DNA of 64,000 bases, taken from Acidobacteriota bacterium. Lineage in GTDB: Bacteria; Acidobacteriota; Terriglobia; 20CM-2-55-15. Of the stretch, positions 2,640 to 57,320 are shown piece by piece. Position numbers and translations under genes: made by a program. The stretch covers positions 4,267-68,266 of the forward strand of contig QHWY01000087.1 of assembly GCA_003223875.1 (NCBI GenBank), written 5' to 3'. The first letter of the stretch is position 1; each line of letters begins with the position of its first letter. A model generated the notes under the pieces. It was not told the DNA's origin and did no database searches. It worked only from the letters and a program-made list of their open reading frames with translations.

Positions 2640-2748
2640 CTGTAGCGGCGGTCCGCGAAGCGCAAGCGCGACAGCGCGCAGCCTTCAGAGATGACCGCCG
2701 ACGATTCGGAAGTGAGACATAGCCGGCGGTCATAGACCGCCGCTACAG
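2640..2748. repeat. Palindromic intergenic element (MITE/REP-like family 1, copy A) between rplE and rpsN
   Basis: The element has termini CTGTAGCGGCGGTC ... GCCGGCGGTCATAGACCGCCGCTACAG. The same inverted-repeat ends recur at 8346, 28543 and 51734. Confidence 0.8.
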
Positions 2749-2967: not shown

Positions 2968-3360
2968 ATGACTGATCCGATTGCAGACATGCTTACCCGA
3001 GTCCGGAACGCCGTTCAAGGAAAGCACCAGAAACTCGATATGCCCGCTTCGCGTTTGAAGATTGAAATTGCCCGGATTTTGAAAGAAGAAGGCTACATCG
3101 CGCATTACAAGACCATGGAAGAAGGCGGCAAAAGCTTTTTGACCGTTTTTCTGAAATACGGGCCGAAAGGCGAACAGGTGATCTCGAAGATCGAGCGGGT
3201 CAGCCGTCCCGGCTGCCGTGTCTACGTTTCGAAGAACGAAATTCCCAGAGTGCTCGGTGGCCTGGGCATCAACATTCTAACGACGTCGCACGGCGTCATG
3301 ACCGGCAAGCAAGCCCGCAAAGAAGGTTTTGGGGGCGAATTGCTTTGCAACATTTATTAA
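2968..3360 (+). CDS. rpsH: 30S ribosomal protein S8
   Basis: The MTDPIADMLTRVRNA N-terminus is S8. Confidence 0.95.
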   Translation: MTDPIADMLTRVRNAVQGKHQKLDMPASRLKIEIARILKEEGYIAHYKTMEEGGKSFLTVFLKYGPKGEQVISKIERVSRPGCRVYVSKNEIPRVLGGLGINILTTSHGVMTGKQARKEGFGGELLCNIY

Positions 3361-7954: not shown

Positions 7955-8341
7955 ATGGCACGTATTGCCGGCGTGGATCTTCCACCGAACAAGAGAATCG
8001 AAATTGGATTGACGTATATCTATGGAATCGGGCGGCCGCAATCGAACAATATTTTGCGCGCGGCAGGAGTAAGCGCGGATACAAAGGTTCGAGAACTCAA
8101 CGATGACGAAGTCAACAAGATCAGGAAGGTTATCGAAGAGCAATATCGTATCGAAGGCGATCTCCGCAAAGAGATTTCATTCAATATCAAACGCCTCATG
8201 GAAATCGGTTCGTATCGCGGGCTCCGGCACCGCCGTGGATTGCCGGTGCGTGGGCAGCGCACCCATACCAATGCCCGCACACGGAAAGGTCCAAGGCGCG
8301 GAGCGATCGCCGTCCGCAGGAAGGCCACGGCAAAGACATAG
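7955..8341 (+). CDS. rpsM: 30S ribosomal protein S13
   Basis: The [27 protein letters not shown]-terminus is S13. Confidence 0.95.
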
Positions 8342-8345
8342 TTAA

Positions 8346-8419
8346 CTGTAGCGGCGCTCTACGAGCGCCGGCAGTCCGGCAATTTAGAGATCGCCGGCGG
8401 TCATAGACCGCCGCTACAG
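8346..8419. repeat. Palindromic element family 1, copy B (74 bp) between rpsM and rpsK
   Basis: CTGTAGCGGCGCTCTACGAGCGCCGGC-(20 nt)-GCCGGCGGTCATAGACCGCCGCTACAG, with imperfect 27-bp arms. Confidence 0.85.
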
Positions 8420-10945: not shown

Positions 10946-11245
10946 GGTTCATTTAGCGATTTTCTTGCACCTCGCGTGTGTGCGGGGGTCGACGTCAGTT
11001 CAATAGCTGGACCCGATTGGGCGATGGACCACACCCTGCGGTCCGAAGCTCAAGTATTTGACAGCAAAGTCTTGTTCAGTTCGCCTTTTATAAGAAATTC
11101 GCCCAACGCTTCCTAGGACTGCCGAAACATCTCAGGACTAACAAAAGAATTCCGGCCGCGCGGCTATTCCTCGACGCGTTAACATGGCGTCTGTTGAATA
11201 TCTCAAAACCCGTTTCACCGGGAAGCGCGATCGATGGAAAACATT

Positions 11246-11310
11246 AATACGCGATAGGCAAAAGCACTTCAAATTGATGCTTCTGAAATAACCGCAGCCT
11301 TTCGTTTTTT
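11246..11310 (+). repeat. 65-bp direct repeat, copy 1 (TAATACGCGATAGGCAAAAGCACTTCAAATTGATGCTTCTGAAATAACCGCAGCCTTTCGTTTTT)
   Basis: It is identical to copy 2 at 12287-12350. Its 3' end forms a 9-bp stem with the following AGGCTGCGG. Confidence 0.85.
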
Positions 11311-12096
11311 TTAGGCTGCGGTACGGGCAGTTTTCATTACGAAGTTTACAGGTGCCAAGTTATTGGAATTGATCTGACGGTGCCTAGCGGGATCAAAAGC
11401 TCACACGTCAGTTTTGTTCAAGCTAATTCAGCGCAAATTCCGATCGCAAACAATTCTGTTGATGCAGTAGTTTGTCATCATACGCTGGAACATTTTGATG
11501 ATTATCGAACGACTCTCGTGGAGATCAATCGAATCTTAAAGGATGGCGGACTGGTCTGGATCGCTGTCCCTAACGGTTTTGGGCTGGACGATGAACTTTA
11601 TCGTTTTGTCTTTTCGGGAGGTGGTCACGTAAATCGTTTTTCTAGGGATCAGTTGATACAGGATGTTCATCGTCATACCAGATTCAGGTTGGTACAAGAG
11701 GTGGATCTCTTCAGCAGTTTCATTTATCTCAAAAAACCCACTCTTGAGGAATACCAGTACTACCCGCCACCAGCCCGTTTCTTGTTTCATATTCCGGATG
11801 GCACTAGCACGGCTGTTGTGTTTTCTCTCAATGCACTCGCACGCTTAATCGATCGACTATTTGGATACCGAATCAGCCAGTACGGCTGGGGTTTTGTGTT
11901 CGCCGCAGAGAGCGCATCTTTGCCGCCGTTACACCGCCCTTACTTCAATGTTTGTTCGAAGTGCGGCTCCGGGGTGTCCGCCAAAGAGCTCCGCGACAAG
12001 GGGCTATCGAGACAATGTTTTGGAGTCGGTTTTTACTATTGCCCGATTTGTCAGCAGCTAAACGCTTTTGTTTCACCTCCCATCGGATGCGAATAG
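11287..12096 (+). pseudogene. 5'-truncated class I SAM-dependent methyltransferase (Methyltransf_11-like) with a C-terminal Cys-rich zinc-ribbon-like tail
   Basis: The frame stays open upstream of the GTG at 11380 and encodes motif I (LGCGTG) plus VIGIDL directly abutting repeat copy 1. There is no start codon and no N-terminal region. Local GC (~45%) is lower than the surroundings. Confidence 0.6.
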
Positions 12097-12286: not shown

Positions 12287-12350
12287 TAATACGCGATAGG
12301 CAAAAGCACTTCAAATTGATGCTTCTGAAATAACCGCAGCCTTTCGTTTT
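12287..12350 (+). repeat. 65-bp direct repeat, copy 2
   Basis: Identical to 11246-11310. It lies immediately upstream of the DUF1592 gene. Confidence 0.85.
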
Positions 12351-12383
12351 TGTAGCTATTTCATCGGTGTAGTTTTACAATTT

Positions 12384-16139: not shown

Positions 16140-16290
16140 TAGCCAAACACCACCCTGTCCCTCTGGCAGAGGGCAGGGTGAGGGTCTCAGGATTTGGCGA
16201 AATTTGCGACCTTCACCCGGCGCGTCAGACTTGCGTCTGTCGCGCCGCCCTCTTCCAAAGGGAGAGGGTTCTGCGCTTCTTTGCATTTTG
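16140..16290. repeat. Intergenic GC-rich hairpin cluster (CCCTCTG-GCAGAGGG and CCCTCTTCC-AAA-GGGAGAGGG hairpins) between the DUF1552 and ankyrin genes
   Basis: The palindromes caccctgtccctctggcagagggcagggtg and ccctcttccaaagggagaggg are seen directly. The same hairpin type recurs at 38761 and 55300. Confidence 0.7.
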
Positions 16291-20999: not shown

Positions 21000-21199
21000 C
21001 ATTCCCCTCCTTGCATCACCGCAAGGGGTGGCTGCGTCATCAAAGAAATGCCGCGAAGCCACCGAAGCTGACGCAGCCGGGGTGGTTTTCGAATGAATCC
21101 AAGAGGAAAACCACCCCGGCTTCGCGATCAGCGGAGGCTTCGCAATATTTTCTTGATCGCTCGGCCACCCCTCCTTGCGGTGATGCAAGGAGGGGAATG
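21000..21199. repeat. 200-bp nested palindromic element (outer ~33-bp inverted repeats CATTCCCCTCCTTGCATCACCGCAAGGGGTGGC / GCCACCCCTCCTTGCGGTGATGCAAGGAGGGGAATG, inner perfect 15-bp stem GCCGGGGTGGTTTTC)
   Basis: Seen directly. It lies between convergent genes (MTase + and a hypothetical -), and the ORF-track 'ORFs' inside it are artefacts. Confidence 0.8.
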
Positions 21200-28446: not shown

Positions 28447-28494
28447 CGGCGGCGTACCGACCTGGCATTCGTGAACAAATTGGGTGCGCGACTC

Positions 28495-28670
28495 CCCCTA
28501 ATTTGAGGTGTTGCAAAACTGCCGCAAACCGGTTTTCGTCTGCTGTAGCGGCGGTCTATGACCGCCGGTACTTCGTTGATTCTGCGAAAAACCGGCGCTC
28601 ATAGAGCGCCGCTACAGTAAGAACCGAACCCGCTATTCCGTAGTTTTGCAACACCCTCAACTTAGGAGGG
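28495..28670. repeat. Composite nested palindromic element: family-1 copy C (28543-28617) embedded between outer inverted repeats CCCCTAATTTGAGGTGTTGCAAAACT / AGTTTTGCAACACCCTCAACTTAGGAGGG
   Basis: Both the inner and the outer inverted repeats are visible directly. It lies in the pheA to ICL-family gene spacer. Confidence 0.8.
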
Positions 28671-28737
28671 GAGAGCGTCGCTGAAGTTACAACGATTGAT
28701 AGGTTTGACACCGCGCCGGTAGTATATTCAGGTACTC

Positions 28738-32458: not shown

Positions 32459-32543
32459 CGAGAAAATTCGGGGCCAGACGGGTGAATTCCCTATTTTGAA
32501 CTGCAAAAATAGGGAATTCACCCGTCTGACCCCGAATTTTCTC
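32459..32543. promoter_or_regulatory. 38-bp-arm near-perfect palindrome (GAGAAAATTCGGGGCCAGACGGGTGAATTCCCTATTTT / AAAATAGGGAATTCACCCGTCTGACCCCGAATTTTCTC) in the sir/transporter divergent intergenic region
   Basis: Seen directly, with one mismatch in 38 bp and a 7-nt spacer. It ends 25 bp upstream of the transporter ATG. Confidence 0.7.
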
Positions 32544-33831: not shown

Positions 33832-34628
33832 AAGCGGCCCCATGGATTTTGTGTTTCTTGACGGCCGCCATTCCACTTCGGGCTGAGAGCGTCAACGTCG
33901 CGGCAGCCTCTGATCTCAATTTTGCTGTCCAGGAAATCATCAAATCATTCGAACACAATACAGGCAATACGGTTCGTCTCACGCTCGGCTCCTCGGGTAA
34001 TTTCTATGCCCAGATTTTGAATGGGGCACCGTTCGACGTGTTTCTCTCGGCCGATATGGACTATCCGAAGCGACTCGAGAGACAAGGATACTCGGTGCCC
34101 GGCTCAACATTTACTTATGGTGTCGGCCGACTTGCATTGTGGGTGCCGAACCGATCATCTCTGGATCTCGATAAAATTGGAATGAACGCTTTGCTAGATG
34201 ATTCGATTAGGAAGATCGCGATTGCGAATCCGGAACACGCACCGTACGGGCGCGCGGCGGTTGCCGCTCTGGAACATACGAAGCTTTACGATCGTGTCAA
34301 GGGCAAGCTTGTACTTGGAGAAAATGTCTCGCAAGCCGCGCAATTCGTCCAATCGGGTGCTGCGGACGCCGGAATTGTCGCGATGTCGATTGCGCTATCT
34401 CGGCCAATGCGCGACGGCGGCCGATATTGGGCGGTTCCGGCCGATACTTACCCCCGACTCGAACAAGCTGCTGTGCTGTTGAAACACGCCGGTCCAGTGG
34501 GAAAAGCCTTTCACGAATGGCTTCGCAGCGCTGAAGCACGGAGAATTTTCGACAATTATGGCTTTGCCGCAAGCCGCGAAGCGCGTCAGGGCGTGTTGCC
34601 CCAGCCGCGAAGCGGCGTCAGAAGATAG
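33804..34628 (+). CDS. modA: Molybdate/tungstate(-like oxyanion) ABC transporter periplasmic binding protein
   Basis: ModA-family motif LTLGSSGNFYAQILNGAPFDVFLSAD, plus a signal peptide. Confidence 0.8.
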   Translation: MLGVLRASMKAAPWILCFLTAAIPLRAESVNVAAASDLNFAVQEIIKSFEHNTGNTVRLTLGSSGNFYAQILNGAPFDVFLSADMDYPKRLERQGYSVPGSTFTYGVGRLALWVPNRSSLDLDKIGMNALLDDSIRKIAIANPEHAPYGRAAVAALEHTKLYDRVKGKLVLGENVSQAAQFVQSGAADAGIVAMSIALSRPMRDGGRYWAVPADTYPRLEQAAVLLKHAGPVGKAFHEWLRSAEARRIFDNYGFAASREARQGVLPQPRSGVRR

Positions 34629-34800
34629 CCCAGCGCGCGAGCGCTGGGGTTTGTGTTCGTCCATGTCACAGCCCCGGAGGGGCGGCAGATTTGAAGCATC
34701 TGCCGCCGCTTCGCGGCTTGTGTCGGCTGTGAAATCAAAGCCAGGGCTGACGCCCTGGGCTAGTGTTGCCGCTTCGCGGCTTTGAGCAAGAGGGCTGGCG
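34629..34800. repeat. REP-like array (CCCAGCGCGCGAGCGCTGGGG, GCCCCGGAGGGGCGGC, CCAGGGCTGACGCCCTGGG, GGCTGGCGCCCTGGG) between modA and modB
   Basis: These GC-rich palindromic units have the same consensus as the REPs flanking the RAYT at 47140-47830. Confidence 0.7.
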
Positions 34801-34841
34801 CCCTGGGATATTTGTCTAACGTCGCTTCATGACTTTGGCGA

Positions 34842-35495: not shown

Positions 35496-36513
35496 AGGCC
35501 GATTATCCGTCGAGGCCTCGGTTCGTATTCCGCATGGTCCCTCTACAACAATTCTCTTCGGCCCGTCAGGCGCCGGCAAAACCACCGTCCTTCGATGCAT
35601 CGCCGGATTGGAAAAACTAACTGCCGGCCGAATCATCTTCAATGGTCAGGATTGGACGAACATGCCGCCGCACAAGAGACCCATTGGTTATCTCTTCCAG
35701 GACTACGCATTGTTCCCGCATCTCAGGGTTTCGGAAAATATCGGATATGCGGGCAAGCAATCACGTGAGTCGATAAAAAGTATCGCCTCGATGCTTAAGG
35801 TGGATGATGTTCTCGATCACTGGCCTTCGGAACTATCGGGTGGACAGCAACAGCGCGTGGCGCTGGCCCGGGTGCTGGCGCGAGAACCGCGATTGCTGCT
35901 TTTGGACGAGCCGCTATCGGCTCTGGATGCGGCCACTCGTGACCATGTGCGAGCGGAGCTCGCGCAGGTCCTTCGCAATCTCGGTATTCCCGCGATTGTT
36001 GTGAGTCACGACTGGGTAGATGCATTGACGCTCGGCGATCAAATGCTGGTCATGAGCGGTGGGCGCGTCTTGCAAGTTGGTGCTCCGCCGGAAGTCTTTA
36101 AGCGGCCGCAGCATCCCGAGGTCGCGTCGGCGGTGGGAGTGGAAACGGTGGTCACAGGGCGCATCCGACGGCGTGAAGCCGGAGTTGCTTTGCTCGACAT
36201 CGGATCAACACAACTGGTTGCTGCCGATCCGGGCGGCGACGCCTTAGACTTCTATGTTTGTATTCGCGGTGAAGATGTGACTCTGGAAAAGGGCCGTGCC
36301 GAACAGAGCAGCGCGCGAAACCACTTGCGCGGCACGGTGTCACAAATTTCCGTTGCAGGAGTTCTCACGAAAGTTACGATCGACGCCGGGTTCGAGCTCG
36401 TCGCATTAGTAACGCGGCAGGCTACCGCGGACCTCGAGTTATCAACGGGCACCGAGATTTTCGCGGTCTTCAAAGCATCCGCGGTTCATCTCATTCCCAA
36501 CGCCCGCATATAA
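35434..36513 (+). CDS. modC: Molybdate ABC transporter ATP-binding protein with C-terminal TOBE/MOP domain
   Basis: Walker A GPSGAGKTT, LSGGQQQRVALAR, and a C-terminal MOP-like domain. The start may be the TTG at 35461. Confidence 0.85.
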   Translation: MDSIEECGSLLLIADIEKRFKGRLSVEASVRIPHGPSTTILFGPSGAGKTTVLRCIAGLEKLTAGRIIFNGQDWTNMPPHKRPIGYLFQDYALFPHLRVSENIGYAGKQSRESIKSIASMLKVDDVLDHWPSELSGGQQQRVALARVLAREPRLLLLDEPLSALDAATRDHVRAELAQVLRNLGIPAIVVSHDWVDALTLGDQMLVMSGGRVLQVGAPPEVFKRPQHPEVASAVGVETVVTGRIRRREAGVALLDIGSTQLVAADPGGDALDFYVCIRGEDVTLEKGRAEQSSARNHLRGTVSQISVAGVLTKVTIDAGFELVALVTRQATADLELSTGTEIFAVFKASAVHLIPNARI

Positions 36514-38759
36514 TGTTGAACGCCAATATGAAATCTTTGTGTTTTTTGTGTCTTCCTTTGTGCCTCTTGTGGTTTGCTCCCGATTTCTATGGAAAAGACA
36601 TCAATTACGAAACAGCACGTCTCGAAAAGCGGCTTCGCGCGGTCAAGATTACCGACAAAATCACGATCGACGGCAGACTGGACGAACCCGTGTGGACCGA
36701 CGCGCCGCGGACAACCGAGTTTATTCAGAAAGACCCTGATGAAGGCGAGGCGGTGTCGGAGCGCACAGAAATCCGAGTGCTTTACGACAGTGACAACATT
36801 TATTTCGGCGTTGTCGCCAATGATTCGGACGTTCGTAGCGTCCTTATTTCGGAACTGAAGAAGGACTTCACCGTCGATACCGGTGATTCGTTCCAGATCG
36901 TTCTCGATACGTTTCACGACGAACGCAATGCGTATCAATTCATCATCAATCCGGCTGGCGCAAAGTGGGATGCGCAGATTGCCAATGAGGGACGCGACGT
37001 CAATCAGAGCTGGGACGGCGTCTGGTATGTGAAGACACGAATTGGGGACGATGGATGGACGGCCGAGATTGCCGTCCCTTTCAGGACGCTAAAATTCCCT
37101 CGCGCTGCTGCGCAGACCTGGGGCATTAACTTCCAGCGAACGATTCGGCGGCGCAACGAAGAGAGTCTGTGGGCACCCGTTCCGCGAATCTATACAGTTC
37201 AGCGAGTATCGCTGGCCGGCACGCTTGAAGGATTAGAAGGGATCGAGCCCGGTTCCAACATCAAGATCAAACCCTACGTCATTTCCAGTTTTGCGCAAAA
37301 CCGCACGCCACAATCTCACAAATATGATGCTGACGGAGGGCTTGACTTAAAGTACGGAGTGACTTCTGGTCTTACGTGGGATTTCACCTATAATACCGAC
37401 TTCTCGCAAGTCGAAGCCGACGAACAACAAATTAATCTCAGCCGCTACAGCCTGCTCTTTCCTGAAAAGAGAGATTTCTTTCTGGAGAACTCGGGCATCT
37501 TTCAGTTCGGTGTCCCCAATGCAAGTCTCGGCGGCGGAGGCGGTACAGGTCAAAGCGTGTTTACTCTATTGAACCCCCGGCCGAATGCCGTTCGGAACGA
37601 TTTGATTCAGTTTTTTAGCCGGACCATCGGCCTTTCTGATTCCGGTGATGCGATACCTATTCTCGGCGGCTCGCGGCTCACGGGCAGCGTAGGACGCTAT
37701 CAAGTCGGCTTTCTTGATATTCAGCAGCGACAGTTGGGCTCAATTCAAGCAACAAACTTCTTTGTCGGCCGTCTTCGCCGGAATGTACTGGAGAATTCCG
37801 ATCTCGGATTCATGGTCACCAACAAGGAAGTGAACAATTCCTCACGCTACAATCGCAGCATAGGAGCGGACGCCAATTTCCGGTTTGGGCAATCCCTAAG
37901 CCTCAACGGTTTCGTGGCGAAGACCATGACGCCTGATCTTTCCGGAAAAGATCTGGCCGGTCGCATCGCGATGCAGTATCAGGACAAAGTGTGGCAGCTC
38001 AGCGGCACCTACACGGTCATCCAGCCGAACTATCACAATGAAATGGGCTTCGTACCGCGCGTGGGCATTCGAAGATTTGCGAGCATCACCAGTTATACTT
38101 GGCGTCCGGGGCGATGGCACCGCCACATTCGCGATATTCGCCCTCATTGGCAAGTCGACTATGTCGTGGATTCGGCCGGGCGTCTGCAAACTAAGTATGT
38201 CGACCTTCATCTTCCTTTCGACTTTCAGAACGGCGCAAATATCGAAATGGGTAAGAACCCGACGTTCGAATATCTCACACAGCCGTTGAAGCTTTCCGGC
38301 ACGGCGATCACGCCACGTGAATACAAATTTAATGATTATTTCATTCTTGGAACTACCGATACGAGCCGCCGCCTCTCCGCGAACGGGCGATTTTCGACTG
38401 GTCGTTTTTATTCCGGCTACAAACATTCATATCTGGCGGGAGGGGCCTTGCGATTCAATTACAAGCTAACGACATCCTTTCAGTACACGCACAACAACAT
38501 TAGCCTAGCCGAAGGCCGCGTGACGCAGAATCTGCTGGTGACACGCGTGAATTATGGATTCACGACGACAATGTTCTTGAATGCGCTCATCCAGTACAAC
38601 AGCGATAACAAGCAGTGGAGCTCGAACGTGCGATTCAACATCATCCATCGGCCACTAAGTGACATTTTCGTTGTGTACAACGAACATCGCGACTCGGTGA
38701 CAGGCAATCTGATCGACCGCGCTCTAATCGCAAAGATGACGTACATGATTTCTCGATAA
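36513..38759 (+). CDS. DUF5916 outer-membrane beta-barrel-like protein with N-terminal CBM9-like (carbohydrate-binding family 9-like) domain
   Basis: A 748-aa protein with a signal peptide. ITIDGRLDEPVWTDAP...DSFQIVLDTFHDERNAYQFIINPAGAKWDA is the CBM9-like signature, and the rest is beta-rich. Confidence 0.65.
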   Translation: MLNANMKSLCFLCLPLCLLWFAPDFYGKDINYETARLEKRLRAVKITDKITIDGRLDEPVWTDAPRTTEFIQKDPDEGEAVSERTEIRVLYDSDNIYFGVVANDSDVRSVLISELKKDFTVDTGDSFQIVLDTFHDERNAYQFIINPAGAKWDAQIANEGRDVNQSWDGVWYVKTRIGDDGWTAEIAVPFRTLKFPRAAAQTWGINFQRTIRRRNEESLWAPVPRIYTVQRVSLAGTLEGLEGIEPGSNIKIKPYVISSFAQNRTPQSHKYDADGGLDLKYGVTSGLTWDFTYNTDFSQVEADEQQINLSRYSLLFPEKRDFFLENSGIFQFGVPNASLGGGGGTGQSVFTLLNPRPNAVRNDLIQFFSRTIGLSDSGDAIPILGGSRLTGSVGRYQVGFLDIQQRQLGSIQATNFFVGRLRRNVLENSDLGFMVTNKEVNNSSRYNRSIGADANFRFGQSLSLNGFVAKTMTPDLSGKDLAGRIAMQYQDKVWQLSGTYTVIQPNYHNEMGFVPRVGIRRFASITSYTWRPGRWHRHIRDIRPHWQVDYVVDSAGRLQTKYVDLHLPFDFQNGANIEMGKNPTFEYLTQPLKLSGTAITPREYKFNDYFILGTTDTSRRLSANGRFSTGRFYSGYKHSYLAGGALRFNYKLTTSFQYTHNNISLAEGRVTQNLLVTRVNYGFTTTMFLNALIQYNSDNKQWSSNVRFNIIHRPLSDIFVVYNEHRDSVTGNLIDRALIAKMTYMISR

Positions 38760-38760
38760 C

Positions 38761-38803
38761 CCTCTCCCTGTGGGAGAGGGCTACCCTCTCCCTGTGGGAG
38801 AGG
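38761..38803. repeat. Two tandem perfect hairpins CCCTCTCCC-TGT-GGGAGAGGG
   Basis: Seen directly. Same hairpin type as at 16140-16290 and 55298-55421. Confidence 0.8.
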
Positions 38804-38845
38804 GCGCGAAGCGCGAGCCCGATAGGGCGAAGCCTCAAGAAAACG

Positions 38846-39130
38846 GTGCACAATTTGGCCGTTTCTTCGAGTGAGCAAGGAGGCGGGAAAGGAGAAGGGT
38901 TTACATTGAACATTCCTCTGCCGGCCGACACGTCGGCTCGAGAGCACCGGCAGGCATTCGCCGATGCCATTCGCGATATCGAGGGAAGATTTCCGCCCGC
39001 CCTGACCATCATCTCAGCCGGCTTCGACTCGCGTCGCGGAGATCCTCTGGGAGGCTTGATGCTCGACAAAGGACATTCTTCGCCTCGCCGAGAAGCACGG
39101 CGCCGGCCGCGTGATTGGGGACTCATCTGA
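38846..39130 (+). pseudogene. Fragment of a histone-deacetylase/acetoin-utilisation (arginase-deacetylase superfamily) gene
   Basis: GEGFTLNIPLPADTSAREHRQAFADAIRDIEGRFPPALTIISAGFDSRRGDPLGGLML matches the HDAC-family GxGF-N-PL...SAGFD-H-DPLG block. The N-terminal ~200 aa and the C-terminus are absent. It is bracketed by 34-bp direct repeats. Confidence 0.55.
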
Positions 39131-39178
39131 ATGGGAGGGGGGCACCCCGAATTCAACCGAATTCGGGGTGCCCCCCTC
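39128..39178. other. Perfect 25-bp-stem hairpin (GGGAGGGGGGCACCCCGAATTC-AACC-GAATTCGGGGTGCCCCCCTCCC)
   Basis: Seen directly. It lies ~115 bp upstream of the giant-protein gene. Confidence 0.85.
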
Positions 39179-39293
39179 CCATTCTCCGCTTCCCTCGTCT
39201 TGCTCCGGCCGTCCAAAACAGGCTAGCATTTTGGGTTTGCCGCGCGAAGCGCGAGCCCGGCAGGGCGAAGCCTCAAATTGAGGAGGTAATTGT

Positions 39294-47132: not shown

Positions 47133-47139
47133 GCGCCGC

Positions 47140-47296
47140 GCAGCGGCGTCAAGACATCAGCCCAGGGCGGCAGCCCTGGGGACAGAATCGACAAAGCAGT
47201 CCAGCCCCGAAGGGGCGGCAAGAGATTAGCCCAGGGCGTCAGCCCTGGGTGACAGGATGGAAATAGAAGTCCAGCCCCGAAGGGGCGGCAGAACTC
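47140..47296. repeat. Tandem REP units (~62 bp x2: AGCCCAGGGCGKCAGCCCTGGG...GTCCAGCCCCGAAGGGGCGGCA) at the 3' end of the RAYT gene
   Basis: The two units are near-identical and can be read directly. Each contains two hairpins. Confidence 0.85.
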
Positions 47297-47746
47297 TCAC
47301 CGCCACACATATCGTTCGTCGTATGGTAGATTATGCTTCTTCAGGAGCGCCATCAATTCTTCCTGAAATGACCGCTTACGATGATGTTCTTCCTGACCAT
47401 CGATGTATTTCGAAACGTGTTCCAAATTGGATTCGCTCACGCTGAACGCCGAATATCCGGCCTGCCACCCAAATGCGCGTCGCTCGCGGCGTGTTTCGTG
47501 GACCCATTTCGAAGAGTTCGCCTTGATGGTACGTACAGCTTCCGCCACGGAGACATTGGTGGGTAGGAAAGTCAGAATGTGTACGTGATCGTTCGCGCCA
47601 TTGATATTTATCGCCTTGCCGCGAATTCCGCGAATGATCCCGCCCATATAGGGGAACAGATCCTCGCGTAAGGGCCCGAGATATGGCATTCGCTCTTTTG
47701 TGCTGAAGATAATGTGAAAGAGAAGTTTGGAGAAGGTTTGGCCCAT
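47297..47746 (-). mobile_element. IS200-like Y1 (HUH) transposase of the REP-associated tyrosine transposase (RAYT) type
   Basis: A 149-aa protein with HVHIL (HUH) and a catalytic-Tyr region AGYSAFSVS. It is flanked on both sides by CCCAGGGC...GCCCTGGG REPs. Confidence 0.85.
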
Positions 47747-47764
47747 ATGTCGCCCCTCTGGGGC

Positions 47765-47830
47765 TGCGGTTTCATGGGCCAGACGTTTTCCCAGGGCTGA
47801 CGCCCTGGGCTATTTTCTGACGCCGCTGCG
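47765..47830. repeat. REP units (CCCAGGGCTGACGCCCTGGG; CGCCGCTGCGCGGCG) at the 5' side of the RAYT gene
   Basis: Seen directly. Same consensus as 47140-47296 and 34629-34800. Confidence 0.8.
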
Positions 47831-47950
47831 CGGCGTTGGAGCGCTCAATGATCTTACTCCCGTGACGTGATATGCAGCTTCACTTCGTCGGAGACAGGAG
47901 CCCAGACGCGAAATCGGCACCGGTTGTCGTCCAACCAAACCGCTCCAAGG

Positions 47951-51733: not shown

Positions 51734-51847
51734 CTGTAGCGGCGGTCTATGACCGCCGACAATACAGCAATTTGCGAGATCGCCGGCGGTCATTTCTTGA
51801 GGCTGCGCGCTATCGCGCTTGCGCTTCGCGGACCGCCGCTTCTACAG
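51734..51847. repeat. Palindromic element family 1, copy D (degenerate/expanded)
   Basis: The left arm CTGTAGCGGCGGTCTATGACCGCCG is intact. The right arm is split (GCCGGCGGTCAT ... GACCGCCGCTTCTACAG). Confidence 0.65.
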
Positions 51848-51921: not shown

Positions 51922-54900
51922 TCAAGTCGCCTCCGTCGTCTGGAGTAACTGGAGAATTCCGGTTAGCGGGATTCGTACCCAATCCGGACGGTTGTTCAAT
52001 TCATAGCCCAGTTCGTAAAGCGCCTTTTCGAAGAGGTAGATGTTCAAGAGGATGTTCAGTTCTTCACGATTTTCGGGCAGAAATTCACCGGAAGCCGCGT
52101 GTTCCAGATAGGAATTGAGGAATGTGGAAGAGACCCATACGTTCCAAAGGCGTGCCCAGGCTTCGAGTCCCACTAGATCCTCAGGTCTGACATTGGCGCT
52201 TCCCAAATGGCCAAACAATGAAGTGTACGCCGCGTAGTGAAACGATCGCAGCATGCTGGCAACGTCGCGAACCGGTGTCCTCTTGATCCGCCGCTCCGTG
52301 AGCGGTCTAGCCGGCTCTCCTTCAAAATCGATGATCACGTAATCCTTTCCCGTGTAGAGGACCTGGCCGAGATGAAAATCGCCGTGGATACGCGTGCGCT
52401 TGGCGGTGATCTTTCTCGAAAGCACGCCGCGGAAACGATTCAGCACTTCTTGCTGTAGATCAAGCACCTTCAATGCTTCATCGAACACAACACCGCGCAA
52501 CGCACTGAGCCGGTTTTTCAACAAGAGAAACATCTGACCGGAATAGTTCCGCATCGACTGGTACAACGATCGCTGGTACAGCAGAGAAAAAGGTTCCGGC
52601 GCAAAACCCGGATCTTCGATATTCGAAGCCAATGCAAGGTGCAACTCTGCGGTCCGCCGGCCGAGCAATTTCACATTTTCCAGGTACGGGCCGATGAGTT
52701 CCAGCGCGAACGGCGGCACCGGCGTTGATTGCAGTCGGTCCACGAACGGCATTGGGCGCAACAAATCCTTCAGTTCGTCAGCAGGCCGCGTGACCGCTCG
52801 ATCAAGATACTGGCTGAATTGGTCCAGCGTGTGCCGCCAGGCGTCTCCCTCATTGGCGACGTACCGTTGGAGGATGCCGACAGCCGCAGCCCGGCCCTCG
52901 TGTGTTCGATATTCGATCGTGCCGGCAACAGGCGGAGCGTGGGGGAAGCCAATCCGTTCGGTCAAGAAATATCCGATTTCGAGATCCGGATTGGTACCTT
53001 CCTCGGCCCGGCGAAAAAGTTTCAATATGAGTTGATCGCCGAAAACGACGGAAGAATTGCTTTGCTCGGCCCGCATCGAGGCGACTTCAAGATTTCTAAT
53101 TGCCGCCGTCGGGCCGTCTCGGAATACGCGCGTTGGTGCTGCAACAAATTCACCGGCCACACCACGTAGATGCCGGCGCCGCGAGATCATGTCGATCAGT
53201 GATCTGCAAAAGTCCTGATCGAGCACCGCATCATATAGGAGGCCTTCGAGGAAATGTTCTTTCTGACGAACGGTGACGTCTGCCAATACCGCCTTCGGTG
53301 ATGATTGCCGGATTTGCTCCGCTCGCTCTCCGGTCGCGAATGATAGCGGCAGAATGTAGGTTTCCGGGTCTTCTTCCGTGTATTCGATCTGAATTTGTGT
53401 GATGCAAGCCTTCGCCGAATTGAAACTGACGGGAACGGTCTCGAGGAATGTTGCAGCTTTGATCCCACGCGCTTTTCCGCCGAACCACCGTTGCGTCTGA
53501 ACATACCCAATCAGGCGGTCTTCTAGGCTAAGACGCGCTTTGCCGGAGAAGACATTCGTCCAAGGTGCTTGTACCGTCAATTGTAACGGCGCTCTAAGAG
53601 CGGCCGGGCGGTCGTAAACGGCGCCCAGAGGTGTTAATGCAAACCAGTAAAAGGAGTGTGGTCCTAGAGTAAGAAAGTACGGCGCATCGCCAATCGGCGG
53701 GAACTGCGCACGGCCGAACAATTCAATCGGCGACGTTCCCTTGAATGCCGACAAATCCAGACCGGCGTATTGAACAAAGCGTGAAAGGTTCGCAATAACG
53801 AGAAGGACCTCATCTTGGTAGCGGCGAATGAACGCCAGAACCCGATGGTTTTCCGGATAGAGAAACTCCAGCGTGCCGCGTCCGAATGCTTTATATCGCT
53901 TCCGCATGGCAATGAGCCGCTTCATCCACCACAACATCGAATGGGGATTGTTCTGTTGTGCTTCGACATTGAACGCTTCGTAGTGTGAATCGGGATCGAT
54001 GACGATCGGCAGATACAGGCGGTGCGGGCTCGTCTTGGAGAATCCAGCATTCCGATCCCCGCTCCACTGCATGGGCGTGCGCACGCTGTTGCGATCACCC
54101 AGATAGATATTGTCGCCCATACCGATCTCGTCCCCGTAATAGAGCACGGGCGTTCCCGGCAACGAGAAAAGCAGTGCATTCATTAACTCGATGCGGTTCC
54201 AGTCCTTCCCGAGCAGCGAGGCCAGCCTGCGGCGGATGCCAAGGTTGATACGCATTTGCGGATCGTGCGCGTAGGCGCGATACATGTAGTCGCGCTCTTC
54301 ATCGGTGACCATCTCGAGCGTCAGTTCGTCGTGATTGCGCAGAAAGAGCGCCCACTGGCAAAGATCGGGAATCGGAGGGGTTTGCGCGAGGATATCAATG
54401 ATGGGGAACCGGTCTTCCATCCGGAGCGCCATGAACATGCGTGGCATCACTGGAAAATGGAAAGCCATCTGACACTCATCCCCGTTGCCAAAGTAAGCGA
54501 TCGCATCTTCGGGCCATTGATTGGCTTCGGCAAGCAGCATACGATTTCGAAACCGCTGATCGACCTGCTTACGAAGGTGCTTCAGAAACTGGTGGGTATC
54601 CGGGAGGTTCTCGCAATTCGTGCCATCGCGCTCGTACAGGTATGGCACCGCGTCCAATCGCATGCCATCCACACCCATTCCGAGCCAAAAGTTGACGACG
54701 GCCAGCAAGCTGCGCCTGACATCGGCGCTCTCAAAATTCAAATCCGGCTGGTGATGATAAAACCGGTGCCAGTAATACTGGCTCGCAATGGCATCCCAAG
54801 TCCAGTTGGAGCTTTCGAAATCTTTGAATATGATGCGCGCTTCTTTGTATTTATCCGTTGTGTCGTTCCATACATAGAACTTGCGCGCCGGACTTCCCGG

Positions 54901-55287
54901 CCGCGCTCTTCGGGCGCGCTGGAACCAGGCATGCTGGTCCGAGGTGTGGTTGAGCACCAGCTCCGATATCACCCGAATGCCCCGCCGGTGAGCCTCGCGA
55001 AGGAACGCTCGAAAATCTTGCACCGTCCCGTATGAAGGATGGACGGCGGTGTAGTCCGCAATGTCGTATCCATCGTCTTTCAGCGGCGATGGATAAAACG
55101 GAAGTAACCAGACTGCGGTAATGCCGAGATCCTGCAGATAGTCGAGTTTTTGAGTCAGGCCCGCGAAATCTCCGATGCCGTCATCATTGCTGTCGTAAAA
55201 CGCGCGGACATGCAACTCGTAAATGATGGCGTCCTTGTACCACAGCGGATCGTCTTCGAGGGTGAAACCTTCGGTGATTTCGCGCAT
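51922..55287 (-). CDS. treS: Trehalose synthase / maltokinase fusion protein (TreS-Mak)
   Basis: N-terminal GH13 TreS (AIIYELHVRAFYDSNDDGIGDF...) and a C-terminal aminoglycoside-phosphotransferase-like maltokinase (HGDFHLGQVLYTGKDYVIIDFEGEP). 1121 aa. Confidence 0.88.
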   Translation of the reverse strand: MREITEGFTLEDDPLWYKDAIIYELHVRAFYDSNDDGIGDFAGLTQKLDYLQDLGITAVWLLPFYPSPLKDDGYDIADYTAVHPSYGTVQDFRAFLREAHRRGIRVISELVLNHTSDQHAWFQRARRARPGSPARKFYVWNDTTDKYKEARIIFKDFESSNWTWDAIASQYYWHRFYHHQPDLNFESADVRRSLLAVVNFWLGMGVDGMRLDAVPYLYERDGTNCENLPDTHQFLKHLRKQVDQRFRNRMLLAEANQWPEDAIAYFGNGDECQMAFHFPVMPRMFMALRMEDRFPIIDILAQTPPIPDLCQWALFLRNHDELTLEMVTDEERDYMYRAYAHDPQMRINLGIRRRLASLLGKDWNRIELMNALLFSLPGTPVLYYGDEIGMGDNIYLGDRNSVRTPMQWSGDRNAGFSKTSPHRLYLPIVIDPDSHYEAFNVEAQQNNPHSMLWWMKRLIAMRKRYKAFGRGTLEFLYPENHRVLAFIRRYQDEVLLVIANLSRFVQYAGLDLSAFKGTSPIELFGRAQFPPIGDAPYFLTLGPHSFYWFALTPLGAVYDRPAALRAPLQLTVQAPWTNVFSGKARLSLEDRLIGYVQTQRWFGGKARGIKAATFLETVPVSFNSAKACITQIQIEYTEEDPETYILPLSFATGERAEQIRQSSPKAVLADVTVRQKEHFLEGLLYDAVLDQDFCRSLIDMISRRRHLRGVAGEFVAAPTRVFRDGPTAAIRNLEVASMRAEQSNSSVVFGDQLILKLFRRAEEGTNPDLEIGYFLTERIGFPHAPPVAGTIEYRTHEGRAAAVGILQRYVANEGDAWRHTLDQFSQYLDRAVTRPADELKDLLRPMPFVDRLQSTPVPPFALELIGPYLENVKLLGRRTAELHLALASNIEDPGFAPEPFSLLYQRSLYQSMRNYSGQMFLLLKNRLSALRGVVFDEALKVLDLQQEVLNRFRGVLSRKITAKRTRIHGDFHLGQVLYTGKDYVIIDFEGEPARPLTERRIKRTPVRDVASMLRSFHYAAYTSLFGHLGSANVRPEDLVGLEAWARLWNVWVSSTFLNSYLEHAASGEFLPENREELNILLNIYLFEKALYELGYELNNRPDWVRIPLTGILQLLQTTEAT

Positions 55288-55297
55288 GGGTCTGTAA

Positions 55298-55421
55298 ATT
55301 CCCCTCCTCGCAGAGGAGGGGTGCCCGAAGGGCGGAGTGGTCAGTTCGGCGGAATGTTGCCGGTCTGACCACCCCGTCTGCGCCTACGGCGCAGCCACCC
55401 CTCCTCTGCGAGGAGGGGAAT
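55298..55421. repeat. MITE-like element with 27-bp terminal inverted repeats (AATTCCCCTCCTCGCAGAGGAGGGGTG / CACCCCTCCTCTGCGAGGAGGGGAATC), each terminus itself a perfect 9-bp-stem hairpin, with two more hairpins inside
   Basis: Seen directly. It fills the entire treS-mak/glgE spacer. Confidence 0.8.
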
Positions 55422-57320
55422 CTACTCCTTCCTCAATATATGAGCCGCCACTTCATAGGGCCTCAGCTCCACATAATTCCTCGGACCCTGCCACGTGAAT
55501 CTAGCGCCCGTCAGCAGATCCACCATTCGATAGGGATGTCGCACGTCGATTCCCAAATCGTCCACGGGTAACTCCACAAATCCAGATTGAGTCCAGACAG
55601 AATCCAGATTAACGATGGTCAGAATGACGTTCCGCTTGTCCCGAGTTCGCTTGCTGTAGCAAACAATCTGGTCGTTATTGATTGGGTGGAAGTGCAAATG
55701 CTCATTCGATTGGAGCGCCGGATTTTCTCTTCTTATTGCATTCACGCGGGAGATGAACGCTCTGAGGCTCGACGGATCGTACACATTGCCCTGTTTGATC
55801 TCGTATTTCTCAGAGTTCAGATACTCCTCACTTTCCGTTTCCCGCGGCACGTTTTCGCAGAGCTCATAAGCCGGTCCATATATCCCGTAATTTGCGCCGA
55901 GCGTAGCCGCCAGCACGAGGCGAACCATGAAGGCCGGACGTCCGCCGCGCTGCAGGTATTCGTGGAGGATATCGGGCGTATTGGGCCAGAGATTCGGCCT
56001 GAAAAATTCAGCCACCTCCGTTTGCGTCAACTCTGTGAAATATTCGATGATTTCGTTTTTCGTGTTGCGCCACGTGAAGTACGTGTATGACTGAGTGAAC
56101 CCCAGCTTTGCCAGCCGATACATGATGTTGGGACGAGTAAAGGCCTCCGATAACAAAATCAGATCGGGATTTTTCTTCTTGAGATCACGGATCATCCATT
56201 CCCAGAAGTCGAAGGGTTTCGTATGCGGGTTATCGACGCGGAAAATCCGGACTCCCTGCTCGATCCAAAACTCGACAATGCTCTTCAATTCTTCCCAAAG
56301 CGATCGCCAATGTGGCGATTCGAATTCGAAGGGATATATGTCCTCATATTTTTTCGGAGGATTTTCCGCGTACTGAACCGTTCCATCCGGCCGCCATCGA
56401 AACCATTCCGGATGTTGCCGGACGTACGGGTGATCCGGCGAGCATTGATAGGCGAGATCCAACGCAACATCGATCCCCCTGCTTTTCGCAGCCGCTACAA
56501 AGCGCCGAAAATCGTCGAGAGTTCCAAGCTCGGGGTGAACGGCCTTGTGTCCGCCCTGTTGGGAACCGATCGCCCACGGGCTTCCGGGCTCGCCAGGCGC
56601 GGCTTCGCGCGCGTTGTTTTTCCCTTTGCGATGGGTGTGCCCGATCGGATGAATAGGAGGAAAGTAAAGAACGTCGAAACCCATTTCAGCGACTTCGGGA
56701 ATGATGCGCTCGCAATCTTTGAATGTCCCGCAGGACCGTGGAAACATTTCGTACCAGGTACTGAAGCGCGCACGAACCGGATCGACTGCAACCCTTAGCT
56801 CCCGATAATGGGAGGCCCTGGATCGGTCCGCATAGCTCGATGCGAGTGCAGCGAGACGATCATCGACATCTTCGATTCGAAGATGCCGAGCGGCGTGGTG
56901 GAGCTTCTGCGCATCGGCGCCCATCGCGCGCTCACTGGCGGCCTTTAGCAGTTCCGCGCCGATTTGAAGATCGACCGTGACATCTTGATTGGCGGCAACT
57001 CTTTTGAGGAAATCTTTGTACCAGGTTTGAAAAGGATCGATCCAACCCGTGATGGTGTATATGTAATGGCCGAGCTTCTCAACCGGAAACTCAGCACTCC
57101 ACCGGTCGTTGCCGAGCAGCTCCATGGCAATTTCCGTCCACGGTTCGTCATCCTCGTGGCGGTATCGCACAACGCCCTCAATCGCCTCGTGCCCATCGGC
57201 GAAGATATCCGCTTCAACAGCGACCGTTTCCCCGACAACCCGTTTGATCGGAAACCGCCCGCATTCGAGTTCAGGCTTCACCCCCCGAATGATCACTCGC
57301 TCCGGAGGCCGCTCGCTCAT
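55422..57320 (-). CDS. glgE: Alpha-1,4-glucan:maltose-1-phosphate maltosyltransferase
   Basis: GlgE-type GH13_3 with N-terminal domains (RFPIKRVVGETVAVEADIFADGHE). The start is probably the internal Met at ~57320 or 57383. Confidence 0.88.
   Translation of the reverse strand: MSERPPERVIIRGVKPELECGRFPIKRVVGETVAVEADIFADGHEAIEGVVRYRHEDDEPWTEIAMELLGNDRWSAEFPVEKLGHYIYTITGWIDPFQTWYKDFLKRVAANQDVTVDLQIGAELLKAASERAMGADAQKLHHAARHLRIEDVDDRLAALASSYADRSRASHYRELRVAVDPVRARFSTWYEMFPRSCGTFKDCERIIPEVAEMGFDVLYFPPIHPIGHTHRKGKNNAREAAPGEPGSPWAIGSQQGGHKAVHPELGTLDDFRRFVAAAKSRGIDVALDLAYQCSPDHPYVRQHPEWFRWRPDGTVQYAENPPKKYEDIYPFEFESPHWRSLWEELKSIVEFWIEQGVRIFRVDNPHTKPFDFWEWMIRDLKKKNPDLILLSEAFTRPNIMYRLAKLGFTQSYTYFTWRNTKNEIIEYFTELTQTEVAEFFRPNLWPNTPDILHEYLQRGGRPAFMVRLVLAATLGANYGIYGPAYELCENVPRETESEEYLNSEKYEIKQGNVYDPSSLRAFISRVNAIRRENPALQSNEHLHFHPINNDQIVCYSKRTRDKRNVILTIVNLDSVWTQSGFVELPVDDLGIDVRHPYRMVDLLTGARFTWQGPRNYVELRPYEVAAHILRKE

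Follow-up and report, generated by a model that had tools for sequence, protein, structure and literature searches.

Among known bacterial repeat systems, the closest layout to the one described here is that of the group-3 REPtrons of S. maltophilia, in which a 23-nt repetitive extragenic palindromic (REP) sequence that contains a perfect 8-bp palindrome and a 3-nt loop is cleaved at a CT dinucleotide by TnpAREP and carries a GTAG guide (PMC8266576). Here we examine four palindromic loci, copies A to D, in a 64,000-nt stretch of an Acidobacteriota genome (contig QHWY01000087.1, positions 4,267 to 68,266; hereafter the window), two of which lie within ribosomal protein operons. We conclude that these loci are very probably REPINs, inverted REP doublets that are not autonomous and are copied by a tyrosine transposase that is associated with REPs (RAYT). 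A sequence-only reading of the window had classed them as "MITE/REP-like" (MITE standing for miniature inverted-repeat transposable element); the REP-like half of that description stands and can be sharpened to a REPIN of a RAYT system rather than a classical DDE-type MITE.

The window repeats share with group-3 REPtrons the GTAG tag, a perfect 8-bp stem, a 3-nt loop, an adjacent CT and an association with RAYT genes flanked by inverted REPs. They differ in stem and loop sequences and in their hosts, which are Acidobacteriota and Verrucomicrobiota rather than Gammaproteobacteria, and the system is described here from sequence alone. Like the REPIN-RAYT systems of Pseudomonas and E. coli, they form extragenic, RAYT-associated inverted doublets that fold into long hairpins around a less conserved spacer (PMC3116915; bioRxiv 10.1101/2021.07.10.451892). 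In those systems RAYTs are described as vertically inherited, rarely changing hosts and co-evolving with lineage-specific REPINs (bioRxiv 10.1101/2021.07.10.451892); here, in contrast, an identical 22-nt REP accompanies RAYTs in two phyla, and the REPINs are short and in some cases composite. The GTAG-tagged REP superfamily, which includes Opitutus terrae GTAG-17 to -20, offers further parallels in its tag, 6–9 bp stems, sub-families related by complementary bases, homo- and heterodimers, variable spacers and occasional intragenic copies (PMC3733652). GTAG repeats have been listed in Proteobacteria, Cyanobacteria, Chloroflexi and the PVC group, with Acidobacteria not among them (PMC3733652). 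The REP sequence of the window is absent from the text and supplements of that work, and a full-text literature search for it returned unrelated primer sequences only.

Architecture of the repeat unit

All four palindromic loci of the sequence-only reading are present at the positions it gave (Table 1), and the common inverted-repeat ends that it reported are readily recovered: the 27-mer terminus CTGTAGCGGCGGTCTATGACCGCCGGC has six matches in the window at ≤3 mismatches compared to none in 100 dinucleotide shuffles, and the 12-mer CTGTAGCGGCGS has eight matches where 0.6 are expected. What escaped that reading is that every terminus forms a GTAG-tagged hairpin of its own, on which selection acts. 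Each REP unit consists of a CT, the GTAG tag and a perfect 8-bp stem (CGGCGGTC/GACCGCCG) closed by the 3-nt loop TAT, giving the full unit CT-GTAG-CGGCGGTC-TAT-GACCGCCG. Each locus holds two inverted copies with the GTAG ends outermost, separated by a spacer of ~23–25 nt, and the short forms measure ~70–75 bp overall. GTAG is present in every intact REP of the window, and the loop motif GCAATTT..GAGATC, previously noticed in some copies, resides in the spacers of copies B and D. A family-independent search for GTAG combined with a perfect 7–9 bp hairpin identified seven sites, compared to 0.2 in shuffles; six of these are members of the REP family of copies A–D.

Copies B and C each pair an arm with a GGCGGTC stem with one that reads GGCGCTC. 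The change is compensated inside each arm, so that the local hairpins remain perfect while pairing from arm to arm gains mismatches. Folded as DNA, copies A–D form strong hairpins of −27.5 to −40.4 kcal/mol; RNA folding, which the sequence-only reading had recommended, likewise yields strong hairpins at all four loci, at −54.6 to −66.7 kcal/mol. Fold z-scores range from −4.2 to −9.5 across the DNA and RNA forms.

Compensatory change in the REP hairpin

To place these observations in a wider set, we aligned 291 REP monomers (≤4 mismatches) from 116 loci of other genomes, the window and the RAYT-bearing loci L123–L129. The tag is nearly invariant (G 98%, T 98%, A 97%, G 98%). It is preceded by T in 93% of monomers and, one position further out, by C in 73% (T in 22%), which would correspond to the CT cleavage dinucleotide. 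One stem position is G-C in 198 copies, C-G in 87 and unpaired in 6; all four combinations at this covarying position were allowed to pass the search pattern at no cost. A second position is G-C in 255 copies, C-G in 17 and G-T in 11. Among 85 distinct REP sequences, 95.1% of stem cells are paired, a value that none of 500 shuffles reached and that compares with 26–68% in slid controls, and five of the eight stem pairs have changed on both sides. The hairpin is thus maintained by compensatory change, that is, by selection on the local REP hairpin.

Convergent doublets number 91 among 241 REP hits at ≤3 mismatches in the 116 loci and the window. Their spacers are mostly 3–34 nt long with a mode of 23–26 nt and vary in both sequence and length, and the minimum-energy folds of the doublets are long hairpins. 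Only 12 of 83 doublets (14%) lie in an open frame, defined as one that stays open for 150 nt to either side, compared to 1420 of 2000 random sites (71%).

The inverted-repeat ends, small size, dispersed copies and variable interior would also suit classical MITEs, deletion derivatives of DDE-type insertion sequences whose 27-bp termini act as terminal inverted repeats bound in double-stranded DNA. The termini, however, are self-complementary, and in 44 of 88 heterodimers the compensatory changes that preserve local pairing break it from arm to arm. None of the four copies has a target-site duplication, nor does the comparison of a filled with an empty site reveal one. Between such termini a Y1/RAYT enzyme is the sole recurring protein, and no DDE gene recurs in the 116 loci. 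We rejected the DDE-type MITE on the absence of both the duplication and a recurring DDE gene, and regard it as the least probable of the explanations considered.

RAYT genes flanked by the same REP

An HUH-motif search picked out a 152-aa Y1 protein with a weak Pfam Y1_Tnp match, encoded at 3272–3730 of L024 (Opitutia). A CT-GTAG-REP on the plus strand lies 15 nt upstream of the gene and an inverted REP 14 nt downstream. Searching the 116 loci by tblastn added a homologue in L046 that is 57.6% identical and has a REP 22 nt downstream, as well as a decayed RAYT remnant between REPs in L051. Homologues of the L024 protein number 2,517 at E ≤ 1e-5, and many carry the name RayT or REP-associated tyrosine transposase at source. 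The three that were checked in their contigs, P0032 (Terriglobia), P0056 (Verrucomicrobiota) and P0054 (unlabelled), are all directly flanked by REPs or REPINs, and the REP beside P0032 carries a further compensated G/C swap, GTAGCGCCGGTC...GACCGGC. RAYT genes flanked by the same REP are found in L024, L046 and L123–L129.

Four of these RAYTs score 88–103 bits against NCBIfam NF047646 REP_Tyr_transpos (cutoff 80), and 32 homologues show no variation in the two HUH histidines, the tyrosine or the NP motif. P0056 resembles E. coli TnpAREP (RayT/YafM, PDB 4ER8) over 130 residues, with the HUH motif and the catalytic Y115 aligned; the match is distant (E = 3.7e-9), and the E. coli REP stem is bulged, as its enzyme needs, whereas the stem described here is perfect. 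The labelled RAYTs are 55–64% identical to one another, within a phylum or between phyla alike. Comparison of the open reading frames (ORFs) in the 116 REP-bearing loci identified no general companion family, as would follow if a single gene in each genome acted on many copies; those of the larger clusters that were checked by sequence are ordinary housekeeping or regulatory proteins. The REP-RAYT-REP arrangement amounts to a REPIN with a gene in place of the spacer and fits the published view that an IS200-like ancestor gave rise to REPINs. In L123/L124, from a Terriglobia metagenome-assembled genome (DATKST010000009.1), the RAYT and several REPs and REPINs occupy 1872–2583 of a type II CRISPR-Cas locus with cas9, with cas1 on one side and cas2 on the other.

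As an HUH/Y1 enzyme of the IS200/IS605 superfamily, a RAYT would bind the folded REP hairpin in single-stranded DNA and cut at the CT, with CT acting as the cleavage dinucleotide and GTAG as the guide tetranucleotide of each unit. We infer that a RAYT of the REP-associated clade is, or once was, present in the host genome and probably made the copies observed in the window, working on hairpins in single-stranded DNA like the TnpAREP enzymes that have been tested.

Several observations weigh against the REPIN interpretation. Neither the 64-kb window nor ~7.5 kb of same-species DNA beyond it encodes a RAYT of the REP-associated clade, which leaves current mobility in the host genome hypothetical, and the association between RAYT and REP is seen in other genomes, most of them metagenome bins. 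The sole Y1 transposase of the window falls in a separate clade and has a different repeat on its flanks. The copies in the window differ from one another (A and D agree at ~86%), so none is demonstrably recent, and the fixation of copy A in an essential operon would also suit a function kept by selection.

That window transposase (ORF 47297–47746, minus strand) was considered as the mobiliser of copies A–D and rejected: it is IS200-like, with 55.5 bits on NCBIfam NF033573 (transpos_IS200) and just 24.6 on REP_Tyr_transpos, and the hairpins around it are of the Acido-Lenti-1 family rather than the REP of copies A–D. The gene is intact (Pfam Y1_Tnp, 77 bits) and lies within 47134–47835, where Acido-Lenti-1 (RF01687) copies surround it in inverted orientation at 47134–47180 (−), 47203–47249 (−) and 47790–47835 (+). 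The IS200-like clade numbers 2,006 homologues. Three Y1 homologues of 79, 61 and 60% identity (L210–L214) have Acido-Lenti-1 matches ~35–200 nt from the gene, and in each of five independent contexts (five of five) the hairpin adjoins a Y1 transposase of the IS200-like kind. RF01687 is listed as a small RNA, and its original description gives no function; our observations suggest instead a transposase-associated DNA hairpin of the IS200-like clade. A further copy at 34603–34648 (−) belongs to a cluster of short GC-rich hairpin repeats at 34560–34810, in the interval that separates an ABC transporter's solute-binding protein gene from its permease gene.

Insertion of copy A into the spc operon

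Copy A lies between the genes for L5 and S14, as the sequence-only reading had stated, beginning at the first base after the rplE TAA and ending 14 nt before the rpsN ATG. Copy B also sits within a ribosomal operon, 4 nt after the rpsM stop in the rpsM/rpsK spacer, a placement that the earlier reading had missed. Six metagenome contigs (L117–L122) with an identical L5 protein all contain copy A, with a single nucleotide polymorphism in two of them. The element is therefore present in seven of seven same-species sequences, the window included, which come from different samples.

That reading had also proposed comparing the spc spacers of related species, and the element proves not to be conserved there. 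In relatives whose L5 proteins are 92, 89 and 88% identical, the L5-S14 spacer lacks it and measures 15, 15 and 16 nt, respectively, and it is likewise missing from the L5-S14 spacers of ~80 more distant relatives. The junction reads ...AGGCAG-TGA-ATCTGAGGAGTATTG-ATG in a relative and ...AGGCAG-TAA-(109 bp)-AAATCGGAGTTTTG-ATG in the window. Alignment of the filled and empty sites thus places copy A exactly between the stop codon and the old 14–15 nt spacer, with no duplication; the rpsN ribosome-binding site (GGAG, 2754–2757) is intact beside it. Judged from this comparison, copy A is a recent, lineage-specific insertion, and because close relatives lack it, an ancient regulatory structure is ruled out. 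We propose that the element would have entered the 15-nt rplE-rpsN spacer of an Acidobacteriota host and become fixed in the sampled population.

At the copy B site, one relative (L131) has a 9-nt rpsM-rpsK spacer and another (L130) an unrelated palindrome. In other Acidobacteria, palindromes or simple repeats of 80–200 nt that are unrelated to the element have inserted in the L5-S14 spacer (L141, L159, L160 and L184) or, in L130, the S13-S11 spacer, where most relatives have 0–30 nt. These two junctions seem to be repeatedly invaded or tolerant of insertion.

From its position in the rplE-rpsN spacer, copy A is co-transcribed with the spc operon, and because its hairpin of about −67 kcal/mol starts at the first base after the rplE stop, an effect on the spc mRNA is plausible. 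REPs stabilise upstream mRNA, and in E. coli, REPs that lie no more than ~15 nt from a stop codon reportedly reduce expression of the gene upstream. Any such effect would be a by-product of insertion: the hairpin may plausibly act as a barrier to 3′ exonucleases or hinder termination at the rplE stop.

A different view is that copies A and B are exapted cis-acting RNA structures, kept by selection whatever their origin, that stabilise upstream mRNA, serve as processing sites, or loosen or attenuate the translational coupling of rpsN to rplE or of rpsK to rpsM. The great stability of the RNA hairpins, the closeness of both copies to stop codons and the presence of copy A in every same-species sequence accord with this view, as do the unrelated palindromes at the same two spacers in other Acidobacteria, where a hairpin could be tolerated or useful. 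We consider it unlikely, given that the closest relatives do without the element in compact spacers, that the same element also occurs between unrelated genes, that the spacer sequence is not conserved, and that the covariation backs local REP hairpins recognised as DNA rather than an operon-specific structure.

Because the elements are extragenic and GC-rich, they might also be host-function DNA sites for genome organisation, such as gyrase- or IHF-binding sites of the kind found in bacterial interspersed mosaic elements (BIMEs), or bidirectional terminators. E. coli REP/BIME elements do bind such proteins. Against this, the genes on either side of three of the four copies run in the same direction and appear to form one operon. 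After the stems of copies A and B come AAATCGG and CTGAAC, and a terminator scan called nothing at either copy; the intrinsic terminator was rejected for want of a T tract, and host-function sites as a whole appear very improbable.

Searches of the window and six loci against Rfam 15, including Acido-Lenti-1, found no family on the elements at gathering score. A permissive search of copy A up to E = 1 returned one spurious match (15.4 bits, compared to a gathering score of 229), and the window contains no tRNA or tmRNA.

Distribution in two phyla

A search for the motif across genomes, as the sequence-only reading had advised, shows that it is not unique to the window. We scanned one genome per species for GTAGCGGCGSTCTAYGASCGCC, with taxon labels as given by the depositors, and found the REP motif in at least 116 loci of other genomes, in addition to two same-species sites past the window. 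Among the 80 matches listed, ~52 are from Verrucomicrobiota (Chthoniobacterales, Opitutia and Verrucomicrobiia), 22 from Acidobacteriota (Terriglobia, gp5 and gp13) and 6 from three oddly labelled bins. Several matches sit on long-read contigs of 0.3–2.2 Mb, and the presence in two phyla is therefore not a binning artefact. The ribosomal proteins of the window are annotated as Acidobacteria.

Two sequences that are 99.5–99.8% identical to the window end (L231 and L232) reach ~7.5 kb beyond it and contain one more REPIN and a 105-nt copy of part of copy C with its right flank. The host species thus has six loci in ~71.5 kb, or approximately one per 12 kb, which is a local figure and not a genome count. 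In L128, 13 REPs are packed into 4.5 kb.

Exact REPs also occur on 16 predicted viral contigs (L215–L230, IMG/VR), in three of them as doublets. None of the 16 encodes a RAYT homologue, and phage transfer accordingly finds no support.

Nested elements and other hairpin families

The sequence-only reading described copy A as an expanded 109-bp form with an extra internal palindrome, and the extra part turns out to be a 38-nt hairpin element. In one REP, this segment stands where GGTC and TGACC would otherwise enclose the two loop bases TA; it has the sequence CGCGAAGCGCAAGCGCGA(C/T)AGCGCGCAGCCT(T/C)(C/A)AGA(G/A)A and forms two small hairpins. Copy D, read on the minus strand, is the same structure as copy A, its insert being reversed in orientation (62 nt at 92% complementarity), a relation that had been overlooked. 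In two free-standing relatives the second small hairpin has compensatory differences. Among all DNA fetched, blastn-short confines the insert to the host species, and Rfam gives only spurious miRNA-like matches on the free copies. The outer end of copy D is GCTTCTACAG in the window; the 99.5% identical strain L231 has the canonical GCTACAG there and carries the TTC variant end in another REPIN.

Copy C lies at the centre of a larger palindrome at ~28487–28672 (arms 28507–28535 and 28627–28655). Its spacer and right REP, along with 56 nt of the flank on the right, are repeated at L231:16349–16453 (105 nt, 98–99% identity), ~3.5 kb past the window. The insert in the REP loop and the palindrome around copy C show repeated nesting of hairpin elements within one another.

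Other repeats are present in the window. A second GTAG hairpin family, GTAG-CCCTCTCCC-ACA-GGGAGAGGG, occurs on the minus strand at 38759–38805, as a tandem duplicate directly after the stop of ORF 36513–38759, and at 16152–16174. A candidate REPIN lies in frame in ORF 51922–55287 (minus strand) at about residue 561, in the linker that joins the trehalose-synthase domain of a fused TreS-Mak to its maltokinase domain, and is also present in L231. Further long palindromes at 21000–21199, 32460–32543, 39129–39184 and 55294–55425 have arms of 26–67 nt that are 76–100% complementary, and the CCCCTCC/GGAGGGG-type arms of several suggest at least one more palindromic repeat family in the genome. Just downstream of rplQ, a perfect 65-nt direct repeat (11245–11309 and 12287–12351, 1042 nt apart) brackets ORF 11380–12096, whose product matches methyltransferase domains in its C-terminal part only; the repeat may stem from a duplication, from a small element or from faulty assembly.

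Table 1 Coordinates of the REPINs, their parts and related hairpin elements in the window.
Feature	Position	Strand	Context or remark
Copy A, composite REPIN (very probable)	2640–2748	.	Between rplE stop (2637–2639) and rpsN start (2763)
Copy A left REP, outer half (CT-GTAG-CGGCGGTC)	2640–2653	+	Split-REP search
38-nt nested hairpin element	2654–2691	+	In REP loop of copy A; second repeat family
Copy A left REP, inner half (TGACCGCCG)	2692–2700	+	
Copy A spacer	2701–2723	.	
Copy A right REP, intact	2724–2748	−	Minus-strand consensus CTGTAGCGGCGGTCTATGACCGCCG
Copy B, heterodimer REPIN (very probable)	8346–8419	.	Between rpsM stop (8339–8341) and rpsK start (8443)
Copy B left REP	8346–8370		C-allele stem
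Copy B right REP	8395–8419		G-allele stem
Copy C, heterodimer REPIN (very probable)	28543–28617	.	Between prephenate dehydratase and PEP-mutase-like genes
Copy C left REP	28543–28567		G allele
Copy C right REP	28593–28617		C allele
Free-standing relative of 38-nt hairpin family	38805–38842	+	
Second free-standing relative of 38-nt hairpin family	39242–39276	+	
Copy D, composite REPIN (very probable)	51734–51847	.	114 bp; between treS-mak and malQ (both − strand)
Copy D left REP	51734–51758		
Copy D spacer	51759–51783		
Copy D right REP, split	51784–51792 plus 51831–51847		
38-nt nested element	51793–51830	−	In loop of copy D right REP; same family as 2654–2691
Candidate decayed short-spacer REPIN (GTAACGGCGCTCTAAGAGCGGC...GGCGGTCGTAAACGGCGCC)	53576–53625	.	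Inside treS-mak ORF; tentative, 4 mismatches

Discussion

What is unusual about this system is solely its range, one 22-base REP being found together with its RAYT in two phyla of soil and freshwater; otherwise it is a REPIN of known kind. The shared REP, together with RAYTs whose identity of 55–64% is the same within and between phyla, suggests horizontal movement of the REPIN-RAYT system between Acidobacteriota and Verrucomicrobiota. Nesting, in turn, would suggest that hairpin loops, once extruded, are favoured as single-strand targets. We advance these two proposals tentatively, as possibilities that fall a little short of an even chance.

If horizontal transfer did occur, it would be a counter-example to the near-exclusive vertical inheritance of REPIN-RAYT systems in single lineages. 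The literature deems such transfer rare, and the two-phylum REP with its RAYT offers a test case for the crossing of large phylogenetic distances. For annotation, the hairpin of the spc operon is to be treated as a lineage-specific mobile REPIN and not as an ancient ribosomal-operon regulator. REPINs fixed against stop codons in essential ribosomal operons also amount to a natural experiment in which the tolerance of polycistronic ribosomal mRNAs for secondary structure can be gauged.

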